A model generated the notes under the pieces. That model was given only the letters and a program-made list of their open reading frames with translations. It searched no databases and was not told the origin of the DNA. DNA of 63,806 bases, the filler included, from Neolecta irregularis DAH-3 (Eukaryota): NCBI GenBank assembly GCA_001929475.1. It is 11 parts of 11 records of this genome, joined end to end, with 100 filler letters (N's around TTAATTAATTAA, not from the genome) between each part and the next. Parts side by side here need not be neighbours in the genome. Positions count along the whole stretch, not along the records: positions 36,733 to 57,396 come from LXFE01000301.1; 10 more parts are not named here. One strand, 5' to 3'. The stretch's first letter is position 1, and the number at the start of each line of letters is the position of its first letter. Of this stretch, positions 49,601 through 50,296 are shown piece after piece. A program made the position numbers and the translations under genes.

Positions 49601-50296
49601 GTGCGGGGAGCGGGAGCTGGACGAGGATACCATGGATGTCTGGGTTGGCGTTGAGGGTGTGGAGATTGGCGAGGAGCTGGTGTTAGCGAGAGTATCCGAG
49701 TATCTCAGCGAGTACCTGCGGTTAGCGAGTATCCGAGTATTTCAGCGAGTACCTGCGGTTAGCGAGTATCTGAGGATCTAAGCGAGAACCTGCGGTTAGC
49801 GAGTATCCGAGTATCTAAGCGAGTACCTGCGGTTAGCGAGTATCTGAGGACCTAAGCGAGAACCTGCGGTTAGCGAGTATCCGAGTATCTAAGCGAGTAC
49901 CTGCGGTTAGCGAGAGTATCCGGGTATCTAAGCGGGTACCTGCGGTTAGCGGCAGTATCTAAGCGAGTATCTAAGCGAGTACCTGGTGCTGGGTGACCGA
50001 GGCTGGCAGGTCAACGAGATGCAGGGCGATGCCTGCGTCCGCGGCTGCGCGCTGCTTCATGCGCACATACGTGGCCGAGTCCTGGCGCGCGCCGACCTGC
50101 ACAATGGCCAGCGCAGGGGCAAAGCGCGGGTGCTGTGCGCGCAGGGCCGCGATGTCGGCGCACAGGCGGTCGCGGAGCGTGCTGCAGTCAGCACGGCGGG
50201 CAGGCACACGCACGCAGCGAGGGCAGAGCCGTCGAGGGTGCGGGCAGGCATCGCAGCCGTACGGAGGCAGCGAGTCAGGCACAGGCGGGGTTGCAT
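46665..50296 (-). CDS. ADE3: Trifunctional C1-tetrahydrofolate synthase
   Basis: [71 protein letters not shown]; many introns. Confidence 0.97.
49677..49982 (-). repeat. 306-nt intron made of 8 tandem complete mini-intron units
   Basis: Units of 43, 39, 37, 37, 37, 37, 37 and 39 nt (5' to 3'), each GT(A/T)C..GCTAAC..CAG. Confidence 0.95.

Follow-up and report, generated by a model that had tools for sequence, protein, structure and literature searches.

How does an organism whose introns measure about 33 nt remove an intron of 306 nt that is built of eight complete mini-introns set end to end? The question is raised by the second intron of a C1-tetrahydrofolate (C1-THF) synthase gene on the minus strand of the window, i.e., the whole 63,806-nt stretch of Neolecta irregularis DNA that was analyzed. 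A first-pass annotation of the sequence had proposed a recursive-splicing ratchet with zero-length exons. The reading that we find probable is that the intron is a minisatellite in which each repeat is a whole mini-intron, excised at least in part by way of internal CAG|GT borders in a nested or multistep manner rather than as a 5′-to-3′ ratchet, and probably with no dedicated function.

The gene was modeled by hand, and the model was examined against protein matches and against contigs from two sequencing runs, X1 and X2, which belong to one study, bear different organism labels (A and B), and are both marked “DNA?”. Contigs of X2 skip three introns of the gene exactly, at 48737-48767 (31 nt), 49162-49195 (34 nt), and 50182-50213 (32 nt), and X1 has no such joints, indicating that X2 is derived from RNA and X1 from DNA. 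The parts of the gene on which the argument turns are as follows.

46665..50251, minus strand: coding sequence of the trifunctional C1-tetrahydrofolate synthase (hand model; 936 aa, 15 introns).
50182..50213, minus strand: intron 1, 32 nt; RNA contig joint 50181/50214.
49983..50181, minus strand: exon 2, whose CACCAG end coincides with a codon boundary; covered by X2 contig 11 with 0 other letters.
49677..49982, minus strand: intron 2, a 306-nt array of eight complete mini-introns, phase 0; skipped exactly by an X2 contig.
49196..49676, minus strand: exon 3, encoding the THF dehydrogenase/cyclohydrolase domains (PF02882, 1.3e-45; PF00763, 3.4e-14); covered by X2 contig 9.
49162..49195, minus strand: intron 3, 34 nt; RNA contig joint 49161/49196.

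The protein predicted by the hand model aligns over residues 1 to 936 with ascomycete orthologues at 65 to 67% identity and 3 to 6 gaps, P0002, P0007, and P0013 being at 67%, and the best protein matches are likewise ascomycete orthologues, 67 to 71% identical. As this alignment runs from end to end across the junction, the exon 2/exon 3 junction must be correct and the array noncoding. Pfam searches of the exons matched PF00763, PF02882, and PF01268 (FTHFS), i.e., a dehydrogenase/cyclohydrolase followed by a formate-THF ligase in a single protein. Upstream of the chosen start, an in-frame ATG at a distance of 45 nt (50252-50296, minus strand) would add 15 residues that, read by eye, are arginine rich and free of acidic residues; this extension is possibly an alternative, mitochondrial-targeting start of the C1-THF synthase.

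The other 14 introns of the gene measure 31 to 35 nt in 13 cases and 42 nt in one, and one of them is of the GC-AG type. This is apparently intron 13 (47270-47303, minus strand), which starts GCAAGT and for which no GT-AG option preserves both the frame and the alignment with the orthologues. Further introns could be read by hand in the isocitrate dehydrogenase gene that lies divergently from the C1-THF synthase gene (50561-52091, plus strand; 407 aa, nine introns of 31 to 41 nt), the model of which has a 1,224-nt frame with one stop, the terminal one. Pfam Iso_dh was matched in two of its exons, and no Pfam match was obtained for the exon at 50998-51219. Taken together, the 23 other introns of the two genes have a median length of 33 nt and a maximum of 42 nt, with 21 of them at 31 to 36 nt and the remaining two at 41 to 42 nt; the 306-nt array is thus 7 times as long as the longest of them. 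A histogram of intron lengths from open-frame joins gave a weak excess at 32 to 39 nt, was very noisy, and was set aside.

Within the array, eight abutting units are found from 49982 to 49677 on the minus strand. In the order of transcription they are the following.

49940..49982, minus strand: U1, 43 nt; starts GTACTC, has CTGCC ahead of GCTAAC, and is kept in the partial RNA form described below.
49901..49939, minus strand: U2, 39 nt; starts GTACCC, with a TC insertion ahead of GCTAAC.
49864..49900, minus strand: U3, 37 nt; starts GTACTC, identical to U5.
49827..49863, minus strand: U4, 37 nt; starts GTTCTC, one position different from U6.
49790..49826, minus strand: U5, 37 nt; identical to U3.
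49753..49789, minus strand: U6, 37 nt; starts GTTCTC, the candidate unit retained alongside U1 in a 137-nt contig.
49716..49752, minus strand: U7, 37 nt; starts GTACTC, CTGAAATAC variant.
49677..49715, minus strand: U8, 39 nt; TC insertion as in U2, and the sole unit that ends ACACCAG.

The donor starts are GTACTC in five of the eight units, GTTCTC in two, and GTACCC in one, while GCTAAC and a terminal CAG are present in all eight, the CAG directly abutting the GT of the next unit or, for U8, exon 3. U1 to U7 end CCGCAG, and CACCAG is the common terminus of exon 2 and U8. U1 additionally carries an internal 12-nt duplication (12-nt period at 49954-49981). Tandem Repeats Finder called a repeat at 49690-49985 with a period of 37, 7.8 copies, 88% matches, and a score of 436. 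That U3 equals U5 and that U4 and U6 are one position apart means that the 74-nt dimer noted in the first-pass annotation is real and was itself duplicated. The sole difference between U4 and U6 lies at unit position 13 (G in U4, A in U6), and the G of U4 creates an additional TAG|GT within the unit; U4 is absent from, and U6 present in, the partial RNA as we reconstruct it. Most of what the annotation had read from the sequence was thus borne out: the minus-strand coordinates of the eight units, with lengths summing to 306 nt, the three donor starts with GCTAAC and a CAG before each next GT, the CACCAG end common to the upstream exon and the last unit, and the constancy of the splice signals amid variable interiors. 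On size it was right that 306 nt far exceeds other introns, and less so that the units match them, since the units sit at the upper edge of a range with a median of 33 nt.

Several comparisons bear on whether these units are introns in their own right. Neither the donor hexamer of any unit nor its 6-nt distance from branch site to end lies outside what is seen in the 23 other introns, in most of which branch-like motifs likewise lie 6 to 8 nt from the intron end. By local standards, and judged on its sequence, each unit is a credible intron, of a length near the top of those found here. The seven internal borders are all CAG|GT junctions with GCTAAC upstream of each, which is the juxtaposition of acceptor and donor that characterizes recursive splicing. 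A scan of the 63.8-kb window for chains of abutting mini-intron-like segments returned one chain of eight, all others being of two at most, and in 50 block shuffles the longest chain was also two. In the unit alignment, the nine signal positions (GT/CTAAC/AG) contain none of the 10 columns that vary by substitution, P = 0.038 under uniform placement, a weak test because the units share a recent common descent; the six indel columns lie outside these positions as well. This invariance hints faintly that the signals of each unit may matter. As RNA, the array folds worse than 100 of 100 shuffles (z = +4.16), so the signals are not buried in structure. The same result rules out an RNA structure bridging the array ends.

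Tandem repeats are hard for short reads, and runs of N occur elsewhere in the window, so that the locus might in truth hold one or a few units that were multiplied by misassembly. Set against this, the distinct junctions U8-U7-U6, U5-U4-U3-U2, and U3-U2-U1-exon are all present in DNA contigs of X1, and the contig of the U3-U4 dimer has a depth of 1006 compared to 440 to 560 in the flanks, fitting two dimers and hence eight units, although X1 may be the source data of the assembly and is then not independent for copy number. The units might also be insertions of a dispersed, introner-like element; however, when the 63.8-kb window was searched for further copies of the unit junction (≤3 mismatches), the array itself accounted for all six matches. 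We regard misassembly and introner-like insertion as very improbable explanations. The orthologous intron in relatives was sought by a metagenome scan, and the 80 loci recovered included no eukaryotic orthologue; in all 80 the FolD-like match was continuous over some 290 aa, and only one (L066) had a ligase fragment next to it.

As to origin, an ancestral intron of approximately 30 to 39 nt would have been duplicated in register, the likely cause being slippage or unequal exchange between the CAG/CACCAG at the end of the upstream exon and that at the end of the intron. Direct repeats placed one intron length apart would give an exact in-register duplication, and the array does extend from the terminal CAG of the exon to the last unit. 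Single units and the dimer would later have been copied again, in a GC-rich and repeat-prone 5′ part of the gene, which would explain the pattern of unit identities. Slippage at the CAG/CACCAG microhomology is a plausible beginning, to judge by these sequences.

The surroundings were also surveyed. A second minisatellite (50316-50500; periods of 25 to 26, 62, and 86 nt) occupies the divergent promoter region of about 310 nt that the C1-THF synthase and isocitrate dehydrogenase genes have in common, some 330 nt upstream of the array. GC content at 49 to 51 kb is 0.57 to 0.60 versus about 0.42 elsewhere, and the GC-rich island together with the second minisatellite fits a repeat-prone region. 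Sharp GC islands (0.50 to 0.65, on a background of about 0.42) are seen at 49000-51000, 7000-9000, 20000-21000, 26000-27000, 40000-41000, and 58000-59000, and within the C1-THF synthase gene GC falls from about 60% in the first exons to about 41 to 46% toward the 3′ end (1-kb bins from 46001). One possible source of this pattern is biased gene conversion at recombination hot spots close to promoters. Elsewhere in the window, two N runs representing assembly gaps (approximately 35510-35560 and 36650-36700) flank a low-complexity region of about 1.1 kb that has 27-, 45-, and 81-nt tandem repeats at 35672-35890, and a 92-nt tandem repeat lies at 10529-10835 (3.4 copies, 79% matches).

The transcript data show that the mRNA joins exons 2 and 3 exactly. 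A 57-nt X2 contig (depth 53.8) connects 49983 to 49676, skipping exactly 306 nt, with 30 letters on one side and 27 on the other, both below the 31-letter bridging rule, and nothing between them. The array is therefore excised as an intron at the outer borders that the first-pass annotation had predicted.

A second X2 contig, of 137 nt (depth 15.1), has a more complex structure. It matches 50012-49914 and 49687-49650, with five and two other letters, respectively, and skips 226 nt, which gives a layout of 30 nt of exon 2, 80 nt of retained sequence, and 27 nt of exon 3. Among the 255 non-empty subsets of units, just five leave 80 nt, each consisting of U1 plus one 37-nt unit. The 5+2 mismatch pattern is reproduced by U1+U6 alone, the other four subsets giving 2+2, 6+2, 2+2, and 4+2; the composition is deduced in this way from length and mismatch counts at an 85% likeness threshold, and not from the letters of the contig. 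With exon-U1-U6-exon as the only form that fits the mismatches, U2-U5 (150 nt) and U7-U8 (76 nt) would have been excised at unit borders, and the excised lengths, 226 nt here and 306 nt in the fully spliced form, would be whole numbers of units. Bubble popping during contig assembly could, for its part, hide a U1+U4 form.

Two details at the downstream end point in the same direction. The two mismatches of the second piece are those expected if an internal-type CCGCAG, and not the ACACCAG of U8, abuts exon 3, and X2 contig 9 ends 3 nt past the exon 3 border, not 6 nt, as expected if words spanning CCGCAG and the exon exist. Only CAG is shared at this junction, and splicing fits it better than homologous slippage or a reverse transcriptase jump, either of which would follow unit homology and so retain the end of U8. 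The product is precisely what splicing from the donor of U7 to the acceptor of U8 would yield. In the exon-U1-U6-exon form, 43 of the 107 31-mers are nongenomic. Walks over genomic 31-mers between the ends of the 137-nt contig have lengths of 289, 363, or 437 nt only, never 137 nt, so collapsed repeats in unspliced RNA do not account for the contig if 31-letter words were used, as was presumably the case for the X2 contigs. Neither the 57-nt nor the 137-nt contig joint is present in the DNA run X1. Taken as a whole, these observations make it likely that exon-U1-U6-exon is a splicing product and that the internal CAG|GT sites are functional.

The form so deduced keeps the outer donor and has lost U2-U5, which is the hallmark of nested splicing. 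Its borders U1/U2 and U6/U7 would have served as donors and U5/U6 as an acceptor, with none of them in both roles in this single partial form. Among the X2 contigs there is none with a junction from exon 2 to an internal unit, an observation of little force because contigs drop rare forms; nor is there X2 cover over 49726-49887 except from contigs that join across it, to which we likewise attach little weight. By contig depth, which is a rough measure, the partial form contributes 15.1 of a summed junction depth of 68.9, roughly a fifth.

Could the array instead be removed in a single step as an ordinary 306-nt intron, with silent internal sites and with the 80-nt form representing a shorter allele or an artifact of library or assembly? 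The exact exon-exon joint is the deeper of the two (53.8 versus 15.1), the organism labels of X1 and X2 differ so that the two runs may come from different strains, and a single partial form is what plain retention of a two-unit allele in the RNA source would give. There is moreover a precedent in intron 7 of the human F7 gene (IVS7), the repeated 5′ splice sites of which can function but offer the first one no competition. Against single-step removal stand the sevenfold excess in length over the longest of the 23 other introns, the need for two separate deletions, both at unit borders, to generate the partial form, and the position of CCGCAG directly on exon 3, where just 3 nt of homology would be available for a DNA or reverse transcriptase jump. 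The 137-nt joint is missing from X1, the X2 exon pieces agree with the window at every letter, and not one signal position varies among the eight units. We consider single-step removal unlikely.

Removal at least partly through internal borders, the reading we prefer, could proceed as follows. Because all internal borders are CAG|GT, any donor can pair with any downstream branch site and 3′ site, and all routes lead to the same mRNA. Each repeat unit would act as an entire mini-intron, with a 5′ splice site, a GCTAAC branch site 6 nt from its end, and a CAG 3′ site; good units would leave fast and poor ones would linger. A sizeable share of the transcripts at steady state would lack U2-U5 and U7-U8 but still hold U1 and U6, and on the strength of this one RNA contig we infer that internal borders are used in vivo. 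U1 may be a poor candidate for removal, being the longest unit (43 nt) with an altered sequence before its branch site, and U6 may be so on account of its rarer GTTCTC donor; the removal of U4, a near twin of the retained U6, is a point against the preferred reading. Since the exon still carries U1, the internal units would have left while the first 5′ splice site was still unused, that is, by nested excision and not by re-splicing from the exon. Of the ratchet proposed in the first-pass annotation, the use of internal CAG|GT sites is thus upheld by the 137-nt contig as we interpret it, and the stepwise progression from the exon is not. The ladder of intermediates in 37- to 39-nt steps that was anticipated did not appear among the X2 contigs, which hold one partial form only.

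All 255 retained-unit subsets introduce a premature stop. Full retention, at 306 nt, a multiple of three, keeps the frame but places a TAG at the fourth codon, and in exon-U1-U6-exon, too, the fourth codon past the exon is TAG; the earlier expectation that retention leads to stops or frameshifts accordingly held for the stops and failed for the frameshift in the case of full retention. Stops in every partial form, a partial form amounting to about a fifth of the summed junction depth, and intact signals in every unit are what one would look for if the array were a selected device, either a splicing timer or a throttle coupled to nonsense-mediated decay (NMD), with C1-THF synthase output set by slow removal in several steps and by partial forms that contain stops. 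The units, though, are young (88% matches, two of them identical) and the region holds another minisatellite, both as predicted by neutral slippage, and selection for such a device seems improbable to us.

The preferred reading, a minisatellite of whole mini-introns that come out at least partly on their own, would also account for how such growth was tolerated: with introns of about 33 nt, expansion was probably acceptable only as long as any unit that was added could be spliced by itself. In its strongest version this would mean that the spliceosome here has a limit near 40 to 45 nt which makes unit-by-unit removal obligatory, that duplication of whole introns is the sole route of intron growth, that the array is one of a genome-wide class of phased intron minisatellites, and that U1/U6 retention is an NMD-coupled kinetic brake on C1-THF synthase; we hold this full set of propositions to be doubtful. 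On that strongest version, the array would be a living intermediate of intron multiplication.

The locus offers a natural test case for the recognition and multiplication of very short introns, in a fungal gene of folate metabolism. The array amounts to a natural experiment on the pairing of donors and branch sites among equivalent partners 37 nt apart, in an organism with intron definition and introns of about 33 nt, and it bears on whether a spliceosome of that kind has an upper length limit. The U1+U6 RNA that we infer hints that unit quality (length, donor hexamer) may set the order of removal. The array bears, too, on the harmless multiplication of introns by tandem duplication, a step in intron gain for which very few intermediates have been observed.

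Zero-length exons, dual-specific AG|GT sites, and splice-site minisatellites are each already known, whereas for eight in-register copies of a complete intron, or any intron made wholly of tandem complete introns, no description was found in the limited collection of main article texts searched. Nor did that collection yield anything on a fungus in which introns measure about 33 nt, and a ciliate paper in it applies the term tandem duplication to genes rather than to introns. For the birth of human introns from tandem arrays there is reportedly a case made by Zhuo et al. in 2007.

The known systems resemble the array in different respects. In recursive splicing, as in the array, a 3′ site abuts a 5′ site inside the intron, the intron exits piecewise, and the mRNA is unchanged. 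Drosophila ratchet points are zero-length exons of this kind (10.1101/006163), and there are fungal precedents in the intron of Schizosaccharomyces pombe SPNCRNA.445, which has a single pivot (10.1101/226894), and in the 375-nt intron of Cryptococcus neoformans BOT1, which is split into 210 plus 165 nt (10.1101/224170). The fungal cases described have one pivot in a nonrepetitive intron, in contrast to seven pivots produced by tandem duplication of a whole intron; the pieces of the array are about the normal intron size of the organism, and its partial form keeps U1, unlike the stepwise re-splicing from the exon of the recursive cases. Nested splicing, an intron within an intron, is documented in 13 C. 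neoformans cases (10.1101/224170) and would be implied by the exon-U1-U6-exon form, although the known nested introns are single and nonrepetitive.

Closer in the nature of the repeat are the dual-specific AGGT splice sites in tandem repeats of human UBC and VCX3A described by Duan et al. 2024 (PMC10809524), where, as in the array, each repeat has an AG|GT usable as either donor or acceptor and intron length is a multiple of the unit. According to its authors, splicing between units is stochastic and repeats with AGGT expand harmlessly because an added unit is spliced out, the same tolerance that we argue for here, and the intron-copy insert of VCX3A is the only known evolutionary intermediate of such intron creation. 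The UBC units are coding (ubiquitin monomers), so that splicing alters the product, whereas the array units are intronic, measure about 37 nt, have their own branch site, and lead to one mRNA. The 37-bp minisatellite of human F7 intron 7 (Borensztajn et al. 2006, PMC1557585) shares with the array a 37-nt period that starts from the exon-intron border and repeats a functional donor. There, the donor alone is repeated and the first copy alone is used, in line with scanning; each unit of the array, in contrast, brings its own donor, branch site, and acceptor, and internal sites are apparently used. Models of intron gain through tandem genomic duplication of an AGGT-containing segment (PMC4974935, PMC2891723) likewise generate new donor/acceptor pairs in register. 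In those models, exon sequence is copied and part of it is turned into an intron, whereas in the C1-THF synthase gene an existing intron appears to have been multiplied, with no exon between the copies.
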